A DNA stretch of 63,288 bases, the filler included. It is 5 parts of 5 records of this genome, joined end to end, with 100 filler letters (N's around TTAATTAATTAA, not from the genome) between each part and the next. Parts side by side here need not be neighbours in the genome. Positions count along the whole stretch, not along the records: positions 21,991 to 29,451 come from SRR31156797_4252; 4 more parts are not named here. The stretch is one strand, 5' to 3'. Under the pieces are notes generated by a model. That model made no database searches and had not been told where the DNA came from. It was given only the letters and a program-made list of their open reading frames with translations. Below, piece after piece: positions 7,555 to 47,286 of this stretch. The translations under genes and the position numbers were made by a program. Position 1 is the first letter of the stretch. The number at the start of each line of letters is the position of its first letter.

Positions 7555-7654
7555 NNNNNNNNNNNNNNNNNNNNNNNNNNNNNNNNNNNNNNNNNNNNTT
7601 AATTAATTAANNNNNNNNNNNNNNNNNNNNNNNNNNNNNNNNNNNNNNNNNNNN
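7555..7654. other. Artificial contig spacer
   Basis: N-run with TTAATTAATTAA (stops in six frames). Confidence 0.99.
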
Positions 7655-21890: not shown

Positions 21891-21990
21891 NNNNNNNNNN
21901 NNNNNNNNNNNNNNNNNNNNNNNNNNNNNNNNNNTTAATTAATTAANNNNNNNNNNNNNNNNNNNNNNNNNNNNNNNNNNNNNNNNNNNN
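21891..21990. other. Artificial contig spacer
   Basis: N-run with TTAATTAATTAA. Confidence 0.99.
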
Positions 21991-22127
21991 ATTGTATTTT
22001 AATAATTTAGAAATTTTGCATAGGTATCTTACAACCTACCTTACACACAAAAACTCCAAAACACAAATTGTTCACAAAGTAGTTAAGGGTTCATTGAGAA
22101 TTCCAAATGCTTCGATGATCTTAAGCT

Positions 22128-23063
22128 TTATATACTTCCTCTGGTGTTGAGCCATCCAAACATTTTATCAAAGGCATTTTCCCGTGCCGGTTTACCAGAC
22201 AGGAAAACATCATGCACTGCATTTTCAATTTCCACCATCTTTACATCCGGACCCAGCTGCGGTGATATCCTTTTGATATCCTCAACATTTAAGATCACAT
22301 CACTGGTTTGTGCAACCTTTTTATATTTAAATATCCGGGCAGATCTGTTTGAATGCAATACCAGCACCGGGACCTGTATATTTGATGAACGCAATGACCG
22401 TTGCGCCCGAAAAACAGCACTTATCCAAACAAACCAGGTTTGAAACCCATCGATAGGTTTCCATTTGAGGCTATAATCCCATTCACCAAAATGATCCTTG
22501 TGCAGCGACATACCATATGCTGGTGGGATGGTCTTTTTGATAGCTGCACCTGGTGCAATCTTTGCCATTAAGTTTGCAGCAATTCTTGAGAGCGGCCTCA
22601 ACATCGGGGGTTGATTAAAATCGAGAAACGGCGCATTTAAAATCAGGACATCAACCAGGTTTCTGGAGTTACCCTTGTTCATATATATCGCAGAGATCAA
22701 CCCTCCGGTGGAATGTCCAAGAAGGATTAACCTGTTGGGATTGATTGTCTTTATCTTGTCGGTAGCCAGATCGATTTCCTCGAAATAATCCGTGAGATTT
22801 TTACAAAAGTTGGGCCGCTGATGTGGCAAAAGTGAGCGGCCGTGCCTGCGCAGATCAAGCGCATAAAAATCATAACCTTCCCTGTTAAACCGCTCAGCCA
22901 TGTGATCCTGAAAAAAGTAGTCCACATAGCCGTGGATATACAGTACACTTTTTCGGTTTTGGGTATTATTTTTTGATGCGATGAGAGTAGCTTCCACTTC
23001 ACCATCAATGTCATCTTGTAATGAGAGTGTCTCTATTGAATATTTCCGGAGCATTTCGGCCAT
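22128..23063 (-). CDS. Alpha/beta hydrolase (lysophospholipase-like)
   Basis: LYIHGYVDYF, GHSTGG nucleophile elbow, C-terminal HDV. Confidence 0.9.
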   Translation of the reverse strand: MAEMLRKYSIETLSLQDDIDGEVEATLIASKNNTQNRKSVLYIHGYVDYFFQDHMAERFNREGYDFYALDLRRHGRSLLPHQRPNFCKNLTDYFEEIDLATDKIKTINPNRLILLGHSTGGLISAIYMNKGNSRNLVDVLILNAPFLDFNQPPMLRPLSRIAANLMAKIAPGAAIKKTIPPAYGMSLHKDHFGEWDYSLKWKPIDGFQTWFVWISAVFRAQRSLRSSNIQVPVLVLHSNRSARIFKYKKVAQTSDVILNVEDIKRISPQLGPDVKMVEIENAVHDVFLSGKPARENAFDKMFGWLNTRGSI

Positions 23064-23064
23064 G

Positions 23065-24678
23065 TTACTTCATCATAAAATTCATCTCCTGCTTCTTGTA
23101 TTCCCGCATTTGTTTTACAGGCTCTATGATTGTATAACCATCCCACAACTGATCGTCAAACTGGTCAACAAAAATGACTTCCATTTTTTTCTTTTCCTTA
23201 AAATCCGCGAATGCCTCGCCGGAGATTTCGGTGTTATCCAAAACAAGGTATTCCACCGATTCTTTCATCGACATGGCTAAGCGAAACCGCACCTTTACCT
23301 CCATCAATGTTTTATCAAAAAGGAACCGTTTTCTTTTTTTTATCAATGCTATTTTCCGGTTGATACTGGCATTTGAAGCACTGTTATAGGAAAAATATTT
23401 GAGTGCATAAGTGCTGTTCTGCTTCTCAAAATAAATAGAACCGCTAAACTGTGTTTCCGCGTAGCCAACGCCCAATAGTTGAATTTCCAATCCCAGCTTA
23501 CCTGGAGCATAGGCATAATCGGCACGCACCAACGCATAGGTTTTGGTGGCAATGAACAGGCGTCCCTCGTACAGCCCTTTCGCCCTGGGCCTGAAATCAA
23601 TAATATATACTTCCTCGCCATTTACACGGGTTCCACCGGCAAGTGAATATTTATAACGCGCGGTTTTATGCAAAAACTCCCATTGATCTTTATCTTCGAG
23701 GTTTGTGTACCGCTCCTTGCGCACAATACCCCATCTTTGATATTTTACCCATCGCTCATTTCCTTTCAGGGTATCTTCCTGTGGTTCAGCAACTATTGTG
23801 TCAAACTGCGAATTAAATTCCAGTGAATCGCTAACCACGGAATCTTGATCGTTTTCTTCTTCCATATCAAGCTTACCACCAAAAATGCCGCTTCTCGCCT
23901 TCCAGTATTCATCCTCATCTGTGTTGGCAAAGGCATTTTCAAAAATGGCTTCAAGCTGCTTAAGATCGGCAACGTCTTTTTCCATTAATGATACGGTTCT
24001 GATAGGATCAATTTTGAAGGTTACGGAATCCTCCGGATTTTTGTTGTAATACAGATCGCCCAAAAAATCAGTGAAAGAGGTAAAATTGTCCGGGAATTTT
24101 TCTTCCACCAGATCAATCATATCCCTGTCCAGTTGCGGAACCGAGCTTTTTTTATATTTCAACTCAAACCCGGTAATGTCCTGATTATCGCGGTCGCGGA
24201 TAAAAACCTGTCGCCTGCTTGTGGTTAGCTTATAGTTTTTGCTTTTGTTTTCGAGCACCTTTTTTACAATCTCCCTGGGATTTGGGCTGCCCCCGAAAAC
24301 CAGTATTTCGCTGAGGTTGATGATATCCTCTTCCATCAACACATCAGGCGAATGCTTTAACTGTTCGATGGTGCGTTTAACTGTTTTGTAACCCATATAC
24401 TGGAAACGTACAGTATCAGCAAAACCAAGTCCTGAAATATCCATGGCATACTGTCCGTGTTCATTACTCACGGCACCGGTATGCTTGCTCAGCACATAAA
24501 TGTGGGTGTAAGGCAACGGAGCCTTGCTTTTATGATCGAGCACCAGGCCGTGAATTACCAGCGAAGAATCCCCGGAAGGGCTGATTTCCGTTTCGATCTC
24601 CGGGGGGAACAATGTTGCAAATCCTGCCGTGGAAAGCAAAAGCAATAAACCGATGAATGGTATGCACTTCCTGATCAT
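23065..24678 (-). CDS. Carboxypeptidase-regulatory-like domain exported protein
   Basis: Signal peptide; GLVLDHKSKAPLPY..GAVSNEHGQY..YMGYKT pattern. Confidence 0.75.
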   Translation of the reverse strand: MIRKCIPFIGLLLLLSTAGFATLFPPEIETEISPSGDSSLVIHGLVLDHKSKAPLPYTHIYVLSKHTGAVSNEHGQYAMDISGLGFADTVRFQYMGYKTVKRTIEQLKHSPDVLMEEDIINLSEILVFGGSPNPREIVKKVLENKSKNYKLTTSRRQVFIRDRDNQDITGFELKYKKSSVPQLDRDMIDLVEEKFPDNFTSFTDFLGDLYYNKNPEDSVTFKIDPIRTVSLMEKDVADLKQLEAIFENAFANTDEDEYWKARSGIFGGKLDMEEENDQDSVVSDSLEFNSQFDTIVAEPQEDTLKGNERWVKYQRWGIVRKERYTNLEDKDQWEFLHKTARYKYSLAGGTRVNGEEVYIIDFRPRAKGLYEGRLFIATKTYALVRADYAYAPGKLGLEIQLLGVGYAETQFSGSIYFEKQNSTYALKYFSYNSASNASINRKIALIKKRKRFLFDKTLMEVKVRFRLAMSMKESVEYLVLDNTEISGEAFADFKEKKKMEVIFVDQFDDQLWDGYTIIEPVKQMREYKKQEMNFMMK

Positions 24679-25111
24679 TTGGTTGAAATATTAACGGTTA
24701 CAATATACAAACATTTGCGGTTCCTGACAAACCCGGAAAATCCATAAAAGACGACTTTTCTTGCCATGTCATTCAGGATGTGTTAATGCTAAACTGATGA
24801 TTTAGTGAATGATGCCGGCTTAACCAATCACCGCATTAAACAATTATCCGCAAGACGATCAGGACGTGATTTTGTTACATCCCGAATACCCTGCAATAAA
24901 CAAATCCTTGCAGTGTTGATATTCAAACCATCTCCGGTTTTATGGCGGCTCCTGGAAATATTTTATTTTAGCAGGTGAATTATCAAAACCTGTGAACATG
25001 AAAAATTTTACCATAATCCGTGTGAACCTTAAGCCCCCTGTTTCGGGTTGTCATTTCAACTGAGCAGAAAGCGGGTTTTGGATGTGATTTTGATAAAAAT
25101 ACACAAACCTG

Positions 25112-25174
25112 AACATATCTGCAGTATGATGTTGGATATGTTTGGAAAAGTGGAATATATTATGAGTTAGTAGC
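25112..25174 (+). mobile_element. attI-like primary recombination site of cassette array
   Basis: Core GTTAGTAGC (25166-25174) is the reverse complement of GCTACTAAC at the end of the first gene; no attC-type left arm upstream; 8-bp inverted repeat AACATATC/GATATGTT at 25112-25142. Confidence 0.6.
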
Positions 25175-25202
25175 AACTTTTAAAAAGACAAAAATTTACA
25201 AA

Positions 25203-26588
25203 TTGAAAAGACATTTAATCATACTAAGTTTTCTTCTAATTGCAATTTCTTCATTTTCTGATTATCGATTAACTCGGGGACCCAACATTGGAGAGGTATA
25301 TTATATTGGACCAACTTACAGTGGATTGGGCATTTACCACTCGACTGATTTTGGGAATACTGCAGTTTGTGTTGATAGTACAACTAATGCAACAGGAGTT
25401 GTTGCAGACTTATCAGAAGGAGTGCTTTATTACAGAAACATGGGAGAGGCATTATATATTTCTTATAATCACGGTCAACAAGGAACATGGCAACTTCAAA
25501 ATGGTGGGATTTACCCTGGATTCGCAAGCGGCAGAATAGAAGGAGAAATTTACAACATTATCGTTTCTCATAGTGATAATTATGGCGAAACTTTTAATCC
25601 ACATAGTTACAATGGCTTTTTTGGCAACTACTTTGAAAGCGAAATAGACAACCAACCAGATATTGGATACCTGCTTACCTACAAATCAAGTGTTGCAGAT
25701 TCTGTATACTTATTGAAATCAATTGACAATTATGAAAATTTAGAATTAAATCGGGTTTTTAACTTCCATTGGAACGATGCAATTACTCTGACCAGAGGAA
25801 CAAATAGTGGAGAGTTATATTTATTGAATAGCACCAATCGTGAACTATGGTTTACTAATGACTTTTCAGAAAGCTGGATTAAAGTGGACAACATTAATTT
25901 TGGTAGCAGCCCTTATGGAGCTACAATAGTCGGAGGAAGACAAAATGGAGAAGTCTATATTAAATATGACTTTGTTAATTTAATGTGGCAAAATGCCCAT
26001 ACTTACATTTTCCACTCAACTGACTATGGGAAAACCTTTGAAGTTTTCCATCCTTTTGGAAAAGGAAATGAACCTGTTTTAGCAAATTTCTCTACAACAG
26101 AAAATGAGGTTTTATTGACAACCCCTGTTGCATTTTCAAACTTTTCAATAGGCAATATTTTGGAATATCAATGGGACTTTGAAAACGATGGAGTAATTGA
26201 CTCTTATGATGAATTTCCAACTCACACTTATCAAGATACGGGTTATTATTCTGTGAAACTTTCAGTGGTAGGAGCAGACAGCACAAATACCTTCATTAAA
26301 GAAAATTACATTCATGTCATTGACACCATAACAAGTAGTCCTGACTTAAATTATCAGGCAGTTAGTGTCTCGCCAAATCCTTTCAATAAAAGAATTTCAA
26401 TTGAATTAAGACAAGATTTTGAAATGATTGAAATTCTTGACTTAAATGGAAAAAGTCATTTTTCAAAAAAAATATACCCGGAAAACAAGATTGAAATCCT
26501 TGACTTGAAACAATTGAAGAAGGGAATATTCATCTTGAAAATTAGGACTAAAGGAAAAGACATTACGAAGAAAATAATAAAGAATTAA
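25203..26588 (+). CDS. Cassette 1: secreted protein with BNR-like motifs, PKD domain and T9SS type-A C-terminal domain
   Basis: Signal peptide; STDFG/STDYG; YQWDFENDG..PTHTYQDTGYYSVKL; SPNPF..KGIFILKI..TKKIIKN; TTG start. Confidence 0.85.
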   Translation: MKRHLIILSFLLIAISSFSDYRLTRGPNIGEVYYIGPTYSGLGIYHSTDFGNTAVCVDSTTNATGVVADLSEGVLYYRNMGEALYISYNHGQQGTWQLQNGGIYPGFASGRIEGEIYNIIVSHSDNYGETFNPHSYNGFFGNYFESEIDNQPDIGYLLTYKSSVADSVYLLKSIDNYENLELNRVFNFHWNDAITLTRGTNSGELYLLNSTNRELWFTNDFSESWIKVDNINFGSSPYGATIVGGRQNGEVYIKYDFVNLMWQNAHTYIFHSTDYGKTFEVFHPFGKGNEPVLANFSTTENEVLLTTPVAFSNFSIGNILEYQWDFENDGVIDSYDEFPTHTYQDTGYYSVKLSVVGADSTNTFIKENYIHVIDTITSSPDLNYQAVSVSPNPFNKRISIELRQDFEMIEILDLNGKSHFSKKIYPENKIEILDLKQLKKGIFILKIRTKGKDITKKIIKN

Positions 26589-26597
26589 GAAAAAGCA

Positions 26598-26736
26598 GCT
26601 ACTAACAGCCCATGATAGCCCATAGCCGGCTTACGGATCATCAAGAAAAAGAATTGTAAATTTGAGCATATGTAACATCAACGAACATCAGAGTAAAGAA
26701 ACGGCTACGGGCCATATGGGCAAAACGTTGGCAACC
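26598..26736 (+). mobile_element. attC-like site 1
   Basis: GCTACTAAC-A-GCCCATgATAGCCCATAGCCG..CGGCTACGGGCCATATGGGC-AAAAC-GTTGGCAACC imperfect palindrome. Confidence 0.85.
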
Positions 26737-26755
26737 ATATAAGCATGTATGTAAA

Positions 26756-27541
26756 ATGAAAAATATCATACTATTAATATTAGCAACACTTCTTTCGAAT
26801 CTAAACATCTTCGGACAAACTCGAGTTATTTCTGGGAGAGTGATAACTGAGTATTTAGAACCATTACCTATGTTAGACATTCAAAATTCTGATGCAAAAA
26901 TCCTAGGTAAAACAGATATGGATGGGAGGTTTAAATTTAGCATTCCTCAAGAAACGGACAGTTTGCTGTTTCGCTATATCGGCTTGGAGCGGACTGATAT
27001 AAAATTAAAGCACGATTGCGACACAATAGAAGTTATCATGTTTTATAGTGGATCCTCTCATTGGTCCTTTAATAAAATAGATAGAATTCGCAAGAAAAGA
27101 TTTGATGAATTACCCAACATACATACTATTGCAGTAAAAGAAGGGCTATTTACGACTAATTCTAATTGCTATGAAAGAGAATTTAAACCTGATAAACCAG
27201 AACTGAAAGTGATTAGTAAGTATTTAAAAGAATTAAGGAAAGCTAACAAAAATGATTTTAAAGAATTAAAAATCGGTGACATTGTAAAAATACCATTTGG
27301 AGTAAACAGCTCGGAAAAAAGTATTAGTAGTACTTATTCACTTTGCGAGAATTGTACTGAGGAAGATTATGATTACGTAATTACTGGAAAGATTATTAAT
27401 AAATACAGAAGAAATTTTACTCTTAAAATTGAGATTACAGAAATGCAACAATATGACTCCTTAGAATATAGAGGGAAGACTTTAAAAATCGGCAATGATT
27501 TTAAATATGAGATGAGAATTTTTAAAGTGATAATAAATTAA
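26756..27541 (+). CDS. Cassette 2: exported hypothetical protein with carboxypeptidase-regulatory-like N-terminal domain
   Basis: Signal peptide; ISGRVI..EPLP..TDMDGRF..FRYIG. Confidence 0.75.
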   Translation: MKNIILLILATLLSNLNIFGQTRVISGRVITEYLEPLPMLDIQNSDAKILGKTDMDGRFKFSIPQETDSLLFRYIGLERTDIKLKHDCDTIEVIMFYSGSSHWSFNKIDRIRKKRFDELPNIHTIAVKEGLFTTNSNCYEREFKPDKPELKVISKYLKELRKANKNDFKELKIGDIVKIPFGVNSSEKSISSTYSLCENCTEEDYDYVITGKIINKYRRNFTLKIEITEMQQYDSLEYRGKTLKIGNDFKYEMRIFKVIIN

Positions 27542-27544
27542 AAC

Positions 27545-27670
27545 GGTTGCCAACAAAAGCTAAACACCATAAGGGTTTTGGCGCATTAGAAATGAATAAG
27601 AATACGTAAAAAAAATAAAACAAAATAGGGAAAAGCTCCTTACAGTGCTTAGCCCCGACCGTTGTGGGTA
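27545..27670 (+). mobile_element. attC-like site 2
   Basis: GGTTGCCAAC-AAAA-GCTAAACACCATAAGG..CCTTACAGTGCTTAGC-CCCGACC-GTTGTGGGTA. Confidence 0.85.
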
Positions 27671-27706
27671 ATGCAACCAAAGACATAGACGTAAGATGAA
27701 TTAAAT

Positions 27707-28363
27707 ATGAAATACACAGAAGACATAGTAAAAAAAGCAGCGAAGGATGCATATTTGAATGGTGATGTAAAATTTGAGATTTTAACTGAAAATTGTGCGT
27801 TGATTGTGATTGACATGCAAGATGAATTCGTAAAGCCAGAGTGGACATCCTCTTGGATTCCTGAAGCGACAAAACAAGTAACAAAAATAAAAATCCTAAT
27901 AGATTTCTGTAGACAAAAAAAAATCCCAGTAATTTATACAGCATTCAAGGATACTCATTTGTACAAAGACAGACCAAAAACAGGAGATTTGATGCCGAAT
28001 AGATATCCTGAATTAGGAGAAGACTCAACTTGGTTTAAGCAAGGGAAGATATGGCATGAATTAGAACCTAATGAACATGATATTGTGATTTACAAGCCAT
28101 CTTATGGTGCTTTCTATGATACTCCATTAGAGACAATTCTAAAAAACTTAGAAAAGGATACGATTATAATTTGCGGTACACTGACGAATTATTGCTGTGG
28201 AACAACTGCGAGACAGGGATATGAGCGAGGTTTTAAAGTACTTTTTGGGAGTGATGTGACTTCAACCGATGATCCAGAGATGCAAGAACCTGAATTAAAA
28301 GTATTAAGAAAAGGATTTGCAAAGGTTATGACTTTAAACGACATACAAAATCACATAGGATAA
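27707..28363 (+). CDS. Cassette 3: isochorismatase-family cysteine hydrolase
   Basis: ALIVIDMQDEF, KPSYGAFYDT, GTLTNYCCGTTARQG (D-K-C triad). Confidence 0.92.
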   Translation: MKYTEDIVKKAAKDAYLNGDVKFEILTENCALIVIDMQDEFVKPEWTSSWIPEATKQVTKIKILIDFCRQKKIPVIYTAFKDTHLYKDRPKTGDLMPNRYPELGEDSTWFKQGKIWHELEPNEHDIVIYKPSYGAFYDTPLETILKNLEKDTIIICGTLTNYCCGTTARQGYERGFKVLFGSDVTSTDDPEMQEPELKVLRKGFAKVMTLNDIQNHIG

Positions 28364-28369
28364 TGCACA

Positions 28370-28506
28370 TACCCACAACAGCCAATATAGAAAATAGCTG
28401 GGCAGTAGGTTTTCGAACTTCGGTAGCCCGCATCAGGCTTTTATCTCGGTAGATAGGAACGTAGCCCGTATTCCGCTAATTTCCATATTGGCAACACGTT
28501 AGCTGC
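28370..28506 (+). mobile_element. attC-like site 3
   Basis: TACCCACAAC-A-GCCAATATAGAAAATAGC..GCTAATTTCCATATTGGC-AACAC-GTTAGCTGC. Confidence 0.85.
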
Positions 28507-28514
28507 AAGGCAAA

Positions 28515-29426
28515 ATGACAGACATGAGAGATATTTACTCAAAAAGAAATAAAAGTGTTCCTGATAAACTTGTCTATAACCAAATTGACGAGAAACTACG
28601 TGTTCAAATTATCAGGACATGGTGGAAGTTTTTTAATCAGTATGATGAAGAAACATCTGAAAAACTATGGTTCAAAATCAATAGTATAATCTGTGACGAA
28701 CACGGAAAACATACTCTCCTTGCAGATGACCTAAGAAGATGGAAGGAGAGTTACAGGTGCCAATATTACTTTGAGAACTTGGAATCTTTAGACGAATCTT
28801 TTGATGTCATTGAAATTGTATTCAGAGCTATATCTAAAATTCCCGAAGTCATTCATCTAAGAATATCTCCAAGACCAGATGAAGTAATAGCTGAGCTAAA
28901 CGAGAGATTTCGAGAAAACGACTTTGGTTATGAATTTACTAAAGGCATGATAGTTAGGGTGGACAATAAACTGCTTCATAAGGACATAGTAAATCAAGTA
29001 ATCCAATTAACTAATGACAGTTTTTTTTCAAATGCAAATGAAGAGTTTCTGTCTGCTTTGAATCATTTGAGACATGGGCGTAATAAAGAAGCCTTAAACG
29101 ATAGCCTAAAGTCATTTGAATCCACTATGAAAATAATAATCCACGACATGGGTTGGGATTATAATGAAAATGACACCGCAAGTAAATTGATTCAAAAATG
29201 CCTTGACAATGAACTGATTCCGAAATCCCTTCAAAGTCAATTTTCTGCACTAAGAACAACTCTTGAAGCAGGTATACCGACCATTCGAAATAAGAATAGC
29301 GGACATGGACAAGGTCCTAAGAAAATCGTAGTTCCTGACAGCTTAGCGACCTATTCAATTTACATGACCGGGACGTGCATTAATTATCTAATCGAATTGT
29401 ACAAAGAAAAAAAGCCCAGCAGCTAA
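28515..29426 (+). CDS. Cassette 4: STM4504/CBY_0614-like protein with abortive-infection-like C-terminal domain
   Basis: IYSKRN..LRVQII N-terminus; ELNERFRE..GYEF; KSFESTMK; PTIRNKNSGHGQG (RxxxxxH); stop codon lies within inverse core. Confidence 0.7.
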   Translation: MTDMRDIYSKRNKSVPDKLVYNQIDEKLRVQIIRTWWKFFNQYDEETSEKLWFKINSIICDEHGKHTLLADDLRRWKESYRCQYYFENLESLDESFDVIEIVFRAISKIPEVIHLRISPRPDEVIAELNERFRENDFGYEFTKGMIVRVDNKLLHKDIVNQVIQLTNDSFFSNANEEFLSALNHLRHGRNKEALNDSLKSFESTMKIIIHDMGWDYNENDTASKLIQKCLDNELIPKSLQSQFSALRTTLEAGIPTIRNKNSGHGQGPKKIVVPDSLATYSIYMTGTCINYLIELYKEKKPSS

Positions 29427-29451
29427 TCGAGTAGACGGCCCCGGCCATGAA
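29426..29451 (-). mobile_element. 3' end of putative group IIC intron inserted in attC-like site 4
   Basis: Reverse strand ..GGCCGGGGCCGTCTACTCGAT|TAGCTGC; replaces the hairpin arm expected after GCAGCTAA. Confidence 0.65.
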
Positions 29452-29551
29452 NNNNNNNNNNNNNNNNNNNNNNNNNNNNNNNNNNNNNNNNNNNNTTAAT
29501 TAATTAANNNNNNNNNNNNNNNNNNNNNNNNNNNNNNNNNNNNNNNNNNNN
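29452..29551. other. Artificial contig spacer
   Basis: N-run with TTAATTAATTAA. Confidence 0.99.
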
Positions 29552-47186: not shown

Positions 47187-47286
47187 NNNNNNNNNNNNNN
47201 NNNNNNNNNNNNNNNNNNNNNNNNNNNNNNTTAATTAATTAANNNNNNNNNNNNNNNNNNNNNNNNNNNNNNNNNNNNNNNNNNNN
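47187..47286. other. Artificial contig spacer
   Basis: N-run with TTAATTAATTAA. Confidence 0.99.

Follow-up and report, generated by a model that had tools for sequence, protein, structure and literature searches.

The array contig and its cassettes

The DNA examined here, called the window throughout, is a stretch of 63,288 nt (1-63288) made of five contigs joined by N linkers. Our subject is an array of gene cassettes on one of these, the array contig (21991-29451, 7461 nt), in which open reading frames (ORFs) alternate with hairpin-forming att sites. An earlier note on this DNA had described four co-oriented, unrelated ORFs with short leaders, and the description holds: the ORFs lie within 25203-29426 on the + strand, their leaders (the distance from cassette junction to start codon) are 17-46 nt long, and the spacers between them measure 167, 165 and 151 nt. 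The imperfect palindromes running from AAC to GTT that had been reported between the ORFs are likewise present, with complete cores of 126, 112 and 124 nt, within the 57-141 nt span expected of attC. ORF functions were assigned from Pfam and NCBIfam profile searches, and covariance model R1 is our model of the sites.

25166-25174, +: left recombination junction, between G and the following TTAGTAGC (inverse complement of the end of cassette 1, 26598-26606)
25167-26727, +: cassette 1, secreted protein with a PKD domain and a type IX secretion system (T9SS) C-terminal sorting domain, ORF 25203-26588 (Pfam, NCBIfam)
26598-26735, +: att site 1 (type A), core 26604-26729, 126 nt (fold, covariance model R1)
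26728-27661, +: cassette 2, exported protein with a sub-threshold CarbopepD_reg_2 match (29.5 bits, cutoff 32.2), ORF 26756-27541 (Pfam)
27546-27670, +: att site 2, a separate site type, core 27552-27663, 112 nt (fold)
27662-28498, +: cassette 3, isochorismatase-family hydrolase, ORF 27707-28363 (Pfam, E 8.6e-37)
28370-28506, +: att site 3 (type B), core 28377-28500, 124 nt (covariance model R1)
28499-29451, +: cassette 4, AbiJ-like protein with AbiJ_NTD4 and DUF7014 (STM4504/CBY_0614 family), a candidate anti-phage gene, ORF 28515-29426 (Pfam, NCBIfam)
29419-29451, +: att site 4, cut by the contig end, R'' reading AAT (sequence reading)

The fourth site is broken off 33 nt into its length at 29451. 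The earlier note overlooked that this position is the end of the contig and not a natural end of the array; the array is cut there on its downstream side and may hold more than four cassettes. Its statement that no integrase adjoins the array was confirmed, as profile searches of all 49 window ORFs of 90 aa or longer found no tyrosine recombinase, and tblastn of a relative's recombinase (from locus L016, described below) against the window at E<=1 found no recombinase remnant in the head region upstream of the array.

Complementarity of cassette ends

In all four cassettes of the window the 8-10 nt that follow the GTT upstream of the cassette are the exact inverse complement of the bases ahead of the cassette's own AAC. 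The end pairs, all on the + strand and identified by inverse complement, are as follows.

Cassette 1: GTTAGTAGC at 25166 and GCTACTAAC at 26598
Cassette 2: GTTGGCAAC at 26727 and GTTGCCAAC at 27546
Cassette 3: GTTGTGGGTA at 27661 and TACCCACAAC at 28370
Cassette 4: GTTAGCTGC at 28498 and GCAGCTAA(T) at 29419, with AAT replacing AAC

Taking the window together with the related loci described below, 26 of 37 adjacent site pairs have at least five (mostly 6-7) consecutive complementary bases beside GTT/AAC. The test set comprised 82 main-strand sites, 79 from the loci (L036 was left out as it overlaps L035) and three from the window, from which two were dropped because their AAC/GTT ends are indistinct. 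By comparison, the two flanks of one and the same site matched in 1 of 80 cases, and random pairs in 1.5% of 5000; the cassette rule is therefore a property of the whole family. Such complementarity would be explained if a circular cassette with a fully paired R box were inserted by a crossover at GTT. It is decisive for the integron-type cassette architecture claimed in the earlier note, which is borne out.

The site family in other genomes

A strict two-arm pattern was built from sites 1 and 3; it has two matches in the window and none in 100 shuffles. Scanning 185,579 species-representative genomes with this pattern returned 53 loci. Ten of these were put down to chance, being non-palindromic and of odd length, with R1 scores of <=26 bits or none, where about eight chance loci were expected. 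The remaining 43 are spread over 30 assemblies, of which 27 carry Bacteroidota labels (Bacteroidales, Bacteroidaceae, Bacteroidetes, Flavobacteriaceae genera, Cytophagales and Marinilabiliales-type genera), and include contigs or chromosome records of 3.7 and 6.2 Mb. Family sites were also seen on contigs binned as Ignavibacteriaceae, Atribacteria and 'archaeon' (L032, L034 and L052, one each), labels that could reflect either mis-binning or transfer beyond Bacteroidota.

The sites are nearly always 125 nt long and fall into at least six sequence subtypes, with window sites 1 and 3 in two of them. Run on the loci, R1 gave 122 matches at E<=0.1, weak opposite-strand echoes included; it recovered further sites beyond the pattern, 30 of which were inspected, and within every locus the main-strand sites all point the same way. 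Similarity between the window contig and the loci is limited to the sites (83-91%), with no cassette gene or flank in common. Site 1 is 83-91% identical to sites in 11 listed loci (among which L036 overlaps L035), site 3 is 87% identical to sites in L003, L017 and L048, and the start of site 4 is 91% identical to L023 2838-2870. The four sites of the window are of at least three types. An Rfam scan of the array contig gave no match at E<=1, and blastn of site 1 against 72,556 plasmids gave none.

Structure of the att sites

Fifty distinct sites were aligned as bottom strands, and RNAalifold returned a single long stem, 12 of whose 18 pairs show compensatory changes. We then scored a structure of 22 pairs, AAC/GTT plus a 19-bp stem, in which 94.8% of cells are paired versus 75.8% in shuffled alignments, a value that 0 of 500 shuffles reach. 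Both sides are altered in 13 of the 22 pairs, the covariation score is 0.445 versus 0.133, and slid registers are 28-50% paired. G.T occupies two stem positions, one in 34 and the other in 42 of the 50 sites, and a fixed G.T on the bottom strand means an A.C mismatch on the top strand. Between the AAC/GTT pairs and the stem lies an asymmetric loop, with 5 nt on the bottom strand's 5' arm and 1 nt on its 3' arm, a feature partly imposed by the search pattern in these 50 sites; a loop of 5 versus 1-2 nt was also seen by eye in most of the 30 sites found by R1 only.

The canonical attC bottom strand carries two or three extrahelical bases on the '' arm, typically T-N6-G, as described in passages of PMC3053210. 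The family does not carry this canonical set, and a bulged base on the '' arm is absent altogether in 33 of 50 sites; strand asymmetry is provided instead by the fixed G.T pairs and the 5 versus 1-2 nt loop. As the AAC/GTT ends and the R-box logic are canonical, the term 'non-canonical' used in the earlier note fits the site interior only, with its asymmetric loop and mostly no extrahelical bases.

In the window itself the bottom strands of the sites fold better than the top strands. Site 1 forms a 20-bp stem with one bulged C on its bottom strand and scores 117 bits with R1 on the - strand versus 19.9 on the +, and site 3 scores 93 bits versus 16.8. Site 2 forms a 16-bp stem on the bottom strand only, by means of G.T pairs, with none on the top strand, and reaches a mere 17.8 bits with R1 (E 0.03); elsewhere in the window no R1 score exceeds 12 bits.

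The loop of site 1 bears TAAATTTG at 26657-26664, an instance of a top-strand motif, TAnnTTTG, that 16 of the 17 type A rows carry at one and the same place in the loop, with AA, GA or AT at the free positions. Besides the window it is seen in type A sites of L002, L004, L013, L015, L016, L023, L027, L035 and L043, and over the 50 sites it occurs 18 times on the top strand versus twice on the bottom. TAnnTTTG matches the Bacteroidota -7 promoter consensus. Judged from its sequence, the motif could drive the downstream cassette, and if it does act as a promoter this would explain the conservation of the type A loop.

A tyrosine recombinase at the head of related arrays

Recombinases were sought by Pfam search of the 167 stop-to-stop ORFs of at least 110 aa in the 43 loci, and PF00589 was found in three of them, at L016, L038 and L010. 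The recombinase of L016, P0001 (445 aa), has its stop codon 144 bp ahead of the first cassette junction and is co-oriented with five family sites, three of them in tandem directly after it. L038 belongs to another metagenome-assembled genome (MAG); here the locus edge truncates the recombinase to a C-terminal fragment, which reads in the direction of the cassettes. Over the 130 residues compared, this fragment and P0001 share 44% identity. About 175 bp separate the end of the fragment from a junction that is complementary, but for one mismatch, to the R'' of the first site.

Three arrays of the L016 MAG open with the same ~195 bp, 89-98% identical, which comprises the last 12-18 recombinase codons and an attI-like block. 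In a different MAG, L013 has a 75% identical attI-like block in which homology ends 2 nt past the junction GTT, beyond which a different cassette follows. By eye, the attI-like block of L016 (reverse strand, ~1620-1660) contains CCCATATATATCCCTATACGG, akin to the type A stem arm GCCCATATAGCCCGTAGCC, and from this likeness CCCATATATATCCCTATACGG may be a recombinase-binding repeat.

The recombinase of L010 was considered as a third array integrase and rejected, since it is paired with an IS91 Y2 transposase and is 28% identical to P0001. It forms part of an IS91-type unit (L010 2215-4123 / L011 1-1065, CAWAHF010000004.1) consisting of a 287-aa tyrosine recombinase followed by the Y2 transposase, and we read this unit as inserted between a cassette ORF and its att site.

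P0001 is most similar to XerA. Its best NCBIfam match is NF040815 ('XerA / site-specific tyrosine recombinase/integron integrase'), at 217 bits (cutoff 220); it also falls under the cutoff of NF011946, and on TIGR02249 (integron integrase) it reaches 160 bits (cutoff 265), split over two stretches. Alignment with XerA 4a8e is contiguous (residues 174-435, 158 bits). With VchIntIA 2a3v it breaks into two pieces, query residues 346-369 standing opposite chain residues 180-246 with ~43 residues absent. VchIntIA residues K209, Y210, W219, P232, H240 and H241 bind extrahelical bases, according to passages of PMC3053210. As these fall in 180-246, the stretch absent from P0001 is the one that holds the I2/beta-4,5 contacts, and by this alignment P0001 lacks the IntI-specific I2 helix / beta-4,5 region. 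An AlphaFold model of P0001 (pLDDT 84.4, pTM 0.48) retrieved XerA first (E 6.5e-17) and then 2a3v (7.6e-15) in Foldseek. Across 34 homologs no change is seen in the catalytic R, K, H, R, H and Y.

The first 170 residues of P0001 are built, by model and homology, from a widespread ~65-aa repeat that is present as two alpha/beta modules. In a search of 1.84 billion representatives these residues match 898 proteins at E<=0.001 and just two at E<=1e-30; these homologs give no functional lead for the 170 residues, and Pfam gives only sub-threshold DUF5710. Homologs of P0001 are numerous in Bacteroidales MAGs and are annotated at source as XerD, 'tyrosine-type recombinase/integrase' or 'site-specific tyrosine recombinase/integron integrase'. 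No annotated IntI1 is among the matches listed from a wider search (40 rows spread over 3455 records). Against plasmids, tblastn of P0001 found only distant core matches, 33-40% identical and each spanning less than 80% of the query, and thus provided no annotated context.

The earlier note had supposed a divergent recombinase that IntI models could miss. As to its existence this is supported in two MAGs, where an XerA-like enzyme stands at the array head and scores 160 against 265 on TIGR02249; as to its function, the link to the cassettes is one of adjacency only.

Relation to known systems

The nearest described arrangement is the cluster of attC sites lacking an integron integrase (CALIN; IntegronFinder definition, Cury 2016, Neron 2022). 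The window resembles it in having at least two co-oriented AAC/GTT hairpin sites less than 4 kb apart with no integrase nearby, one mostly promoter-less ORF per cassette whose start pairs with its own R'' box, and a cargo that comprises secreted, metabolic and anti-phage genes. Provided that the sites count as attC, the array is a CALIN, with three complete sites and one cut site spaced 0.7-0.9 kb apart and no recombinase on the 7461-nt contig; a complete integron it is not, as no I2-bearing integrase was found beside the array, in the window or at the heads of its relatives. The family differs from described CALINs in the 5 versus 1-2 nt loop, with its extra bases on the bottom-strand 5' arm, and in the 33 of 50 sites without an extrahelical base. 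The window differs also in its host phylum, which is almost without integrons in complete-genome surveys, as given in passages of PMC9024848.

Like the integrases VchIntIA (2a3v) and IntI1, the relatives' enzyme is a simple tyrosine recombinase of the Xer/IntI group, its gene sits at the array head beside an attI-like junction ending at GTT, and 2a3v is the second-best structural match of P0001. It differs from them in being ~43 residues short at the I2 helix/beta-4,5, in scoring under the TIGR02249 and NF011946 cutoffs, and in its 170-aa N-terminal extension of two ~65-aa modules. Its gene, in a further difference, is transcribed in the direction of the cassettes, an orientation known from the 'inverted' integrons of Spirochaetes and some other phyla. 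Archaeal XerA (4a8e, 5hxy), the best sequence and fold match of P0001, resolves chromosome dimers at dif and is not known to be linked to cassette arrays, whereas P0001 has an extra N-terminal domain and a dedicated array.

Among the sites, the Vibrio cholerae repeats (VCR) offer a parallel for families conserved at about 85-90% between copies, loop included. They differ from the window, where several site families share one array (at least three types among four sites), and from the family at large, which is common to the labels Bacteroidales, Flavobacteriales and Cytophagales, which we take to be different orders. In the pdif modules of Acinetobacter plasmids, genes are flanked by 28-bp dif-like XerC/XerD core sites; the window sites are unlike these in being 112-126-nt hairpins with variable loops.

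A survey of 22,301 complete RefSeq genomes with IntegronFinder 2 lists for Bacteroidetes proper, in passages of PMC9024848, only earlier In0 elements and one complete integron, in Salinibacter ruber. Ghaly and colleagues name Bacteroidota among integron-bearing phyla, in passages of PMC9668308 and PMC8618304 that give no detail, and their taxon-specific attC models exclude the phylum ('Bacteroid' has 0 occurrences in PMC8352920). Recombinases without intI_Cterm near attC sites were described by Cury et al., in a portion of PMC4889954, as scattered and were concluded not to be IntI; Smyshlyaev et al. call the insertion 'not fully conserved' in an integron-like subgroup, in a section of PMC8138268. 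In the open-access and bioRxiv literature, supplementary tables aside, we found no description of cassette arrays with an I2-less integrase in Bacteroidota.

Interpretation and alternatives

We consider that the window probably contains an integron-type array, on a Bacteroidota (Bacteroidales-like) contig, that is served in trans or is a fossil, and whose relatives possess an XerA-like recombinase devoid of I2. Each cassette consists of one promoter-less ORF and a hairpin site of ~112-126 nt bounded by AAC and GTT, and a tyrosine recombinase would insert and excise cassettes as circles. In the circular form the first bases of a cassette would pair with the bases before its own AAC. The recombinase, of which the XerA-like enzyme of the relatives is the suggested representative, would work on the folded bottom strand with a crossover at or near the conserved GTT, and the fixed G.T wobbles and asymmetric loop would allow the bottom strand alone to fold. 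The window array, with no recombinase at its head, would be of CALIN type. Array anatomy, the end rule, the covarying stem, the occurrence across Bacteroidota, and the placement and domains of the recombinase are observations; that this enzyme moves the cassettes, that it acts on single strands and where exactly it crosses over are inferences. Two observations fit each other, that most sites are without an extrahelical base and that the array-head enzyme is without I2, and together they suggest a variant integron system native to Bacteroidota. More tentatively, at a little under an even chance in our estimate, Bacteroidota may have an integron lineage of their own, defined by an XerA-like I2-less integrase with a two-module N-terminal domain and by ~125-nt hairpins marked by G.T wobbles and an asymmetric loop.

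Several points weigh against this interpretation. The folding energies of the window sites are within the shuffle range (z = -1.56, -0.78 and -1.98 for sites 1, 2 and 3), with 13, 42 and 7 of 200 shuffles folding as well or better, and part of the conservation of site ends in the 50-site alignment is imposed by the search pattern. It also should be considered that 17 of the 50 sites bulge a single base out of the '' arm (G in 15, C in 2); these are the type A sites, window site 1 among them, and they are in this respect canonical-like. The link to a recombinase consists of two MAGs and remnants, by adjacency alone; the window has no recombinase of any kind, and by blastn its left junction is unlike the attI-like blocks of the relatives. 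Moreover, the recombinase search covered the loci, leaving room for a classical IntI elsewhere in these genomes, and the IS91-linked enzyme of L010 illustrates that a recombinase may adjoin a site for other reasons. Finally, passages of PMC7790495 report that deletion of I2 inactivates classical IntI1 and regard I2 as the innovation that enabled hairpin recombination, so that an I2-less enzyme acting on hairpins would need another mode of recognition. A precedent is given by CTX phage integration, in which an I2-less Xer enzyme uses a folded single-strand hairpin, as stated elsewhere in the same source.

Some of these points would be natural if the array were an ordinary CALIN, with normal attC sites, a classical I2-bearing IntI elsewhere in the genome, and XerA-like neighbours that are passengers or belong to other mobile elements. 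The AAC/GTT ends, the R-box complementarity, the co-orientation and the short leaders all follow the canonical pattern, type A sites retain one bulged '' arm base, and one site-adjoining recombinase is clearly within an IS91 unit; CALINs are also common, and more so in fragmented MAGs (parts of PMC9024848 and PMC9668308), and Bacteroidota are listed among integron-bearing phyla (parts of PMC8618304 and PMC9668308). However, two independent MAGs have the same co-oriented layout of recombinase stop, 144-175 bp and first junction, and in three arrays of one MAG the 3' end of the recombinase gene travels with the attI-like block. The absence of extrahelical bases in 33 of 50 sites and the near absence of integrons from Bacteroidetes proper in the 22,301 complete genomes (passages of PMC9024848) likewise speak against it, and we judge an ordinary CALIN unlikely. 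That XerA proteins are the closest relatives of the array-linked recombinase with a solved structure would also suit double-strand recombination by the host's Xer enzymes, in the manner of pdif modules, with the hairpins serving as duplex sites for the recombinases that resolve chromosome dimers. Palindromes of 112-126 nt with a variable loop and strand-specific G.T pairs are nevertheless not 28-bp dif-like cores, the two ends of a cassette need be complementary only if the site of the circular cassette folds, and an enzyme with a 170-aa extension at array heads is unlike housekeeping Xer, all of which makes this explanation highly improbable.

The hairpins could alternatively be something other than recombination sites, namely dispersed repeats of REP or MITE type, terminators or small-RNA genes. 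Elements of ~125 nt that are 83-91% identical across genomes, loops included, would agree with this, as would the promoter-like TAnnTTTG of type A and the unremarkable folding energies. Against it stands the end rule, found in 26 of 37 neighbouring pairs versus 1 of 80 for a site's own flanks; insertion of a repeat would leave direct target duplications at each copy rather than complementarity between neighbours. The sites are moreover strictly co-oriented within arrays, with one orientation per locus where REP and MITE elements would not be so constrained, the homology of the attI-like block ends 2 nt past the junction GTT, and Rfam gave no match, so that we regard this account as more improbable still than the preceding one. 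Least probable of all is an artefact of assembly or binning, by which a chimeric contig or a misassembly had made the repeats. It is true that the window concatenates contigs of more than one organism and that the array stops at a contig break, yet four sites of at least three sequence types are not collapsed repeats, and the same architecture recurs in 30 independent assemblies, including the 3.7 and 6.2 Mb records.

Significance

In practice integrons are defined by an I2-bearing integrase together with attC extrahelical bases, and surveys on this basis find almost none in Bacteroidota. If an I2-less Xer-like enzyme does move these arrays, the definition of an integron is too narrow, and finders that require intI_Cterm systematically under-count integrons in a major phylum. 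Single-strand cassette recombination would then have arisen twice, or the lineage would represent the ancestral state before I2. It would also be a natural second example of how tyrosine recombinases adopted folded single strands as substrates, for which so far only directed evolution of IntI1 has been available. A large pool of mobile cassettes would have been overlooked in marine, sediment and gut-related Bacteroidota; anti-phage genes, along with proteins of beta-lactamase fold, secreted T9SS proteins and peptidases, belong to the cargo of the window and the related loci. Site model R1 offers a direct handle for finding the rest of the family.

Genomic context of the array

The remaining features of the array contig and its surroundings are listed here.

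22128-23063, -: alpha/beta hydrolase, left flank outside the array (Pfam)
23065-24678, -: 537-aa CarbopepD_reg_2 protein, left flank outside the array (Pfam)
24679-25165, +: head region, non-coding, 487 bp before the first cassette junction (sequence reading)
29452-29551, no strand: artificial contig linker, N44-TTAATTAATTAA-N44, not biology (sequence reading)

The gene divergent from the array is thus the CarbopepD_reg_2 protein at 23065-24678 and, as the earlier note had it, not a tyrosine recombinase. Its top homolog is unnamed and 81% identical, and its named homologs are all from Bacteroidales/Bacteroidota MAGs. Together with the T9SS-tailed cargo and the site family in 27 Bacteroidota-labelled assemblies of 30, this upholds the placement of the array as native to Bacteroidota. 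The greater AT content of the array relative to the upstream host genes was likewise reproduced, GC being 0.31-0.36 in the array versus 0.42 in 22001-25000.

The same N44-TTAATTAATTAA-N44 linkers are found at 7555-7654, 21891-21990 and 47187-47286. The last contig (47287-63288) has a GC of about 0.44 and carries tusBCD, fkpA, hflXKC, miaA, mutL, amiB, tsaE and queG, a gene set and order that we read as gammaproteobacterial. The source bin or assembly thus mixes organisms, and neighbouring contigs are therefore uninformative on the host of the array.

By blastn the head region (24679-25165) has no similarity to the attI-like blocks of L016, L004, L035 and L013, and R1 found in these 487 bp no resemblance to the family att sites. 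At 25137-25144, 22 nt ahead of the first junction, it holds TATGTTTG, a candidate Bacteroidota -7 promoter box and hence a candidate array promoter; TTTG was not found at the usual -33 distance from it.

Cargo and mobile elements at related loci

Cargo of defence type in the related loci comprises ThsB-TIR, CAP12 TIR, SIR2_2, an AbiEii-like AAA protein, DUF4238, Hypoth_Ymh and a pPIWI-associated nuclease. Beta-lactamase-fold proteins occur in L007, L020, L028 and L041, and S41 peptidases are also frequent between sites; the loci rich in these three kinds of cargo are L007, L011, L013, L018, L020, L026, L028, L030, L041 and L048. A mini-cassette of 285 bp, starting ATTATTCATGG, is repeated in tandem up to three times in MAG CAWJBC01 (L002, L004, L015, L016 and L035), where it lies on three contigs, in four places, with differing neighbours.

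Group II intron RNA domains (Rfam RF02001, RF01999 and RF02012) and reverse-transcriptase ORFs adjoin att sites at three loci, as identified by Rfam and Pfam.

L023 895-1079 and 3192-4100: intron domains / reverse-transcriptase ORFs
L039 2294-2404 and 2694-4055: intron domains / reverse-transcriptase ORFs
L003 2754-2920 and 3306-4124: intron domains / reverse-transcriptase ORFs

The intron of L023 lies opposite to the cassette strand and appears to abut a site of the type of window site 4, an arrangement that recalls the group IIC introns, which target attC sites.

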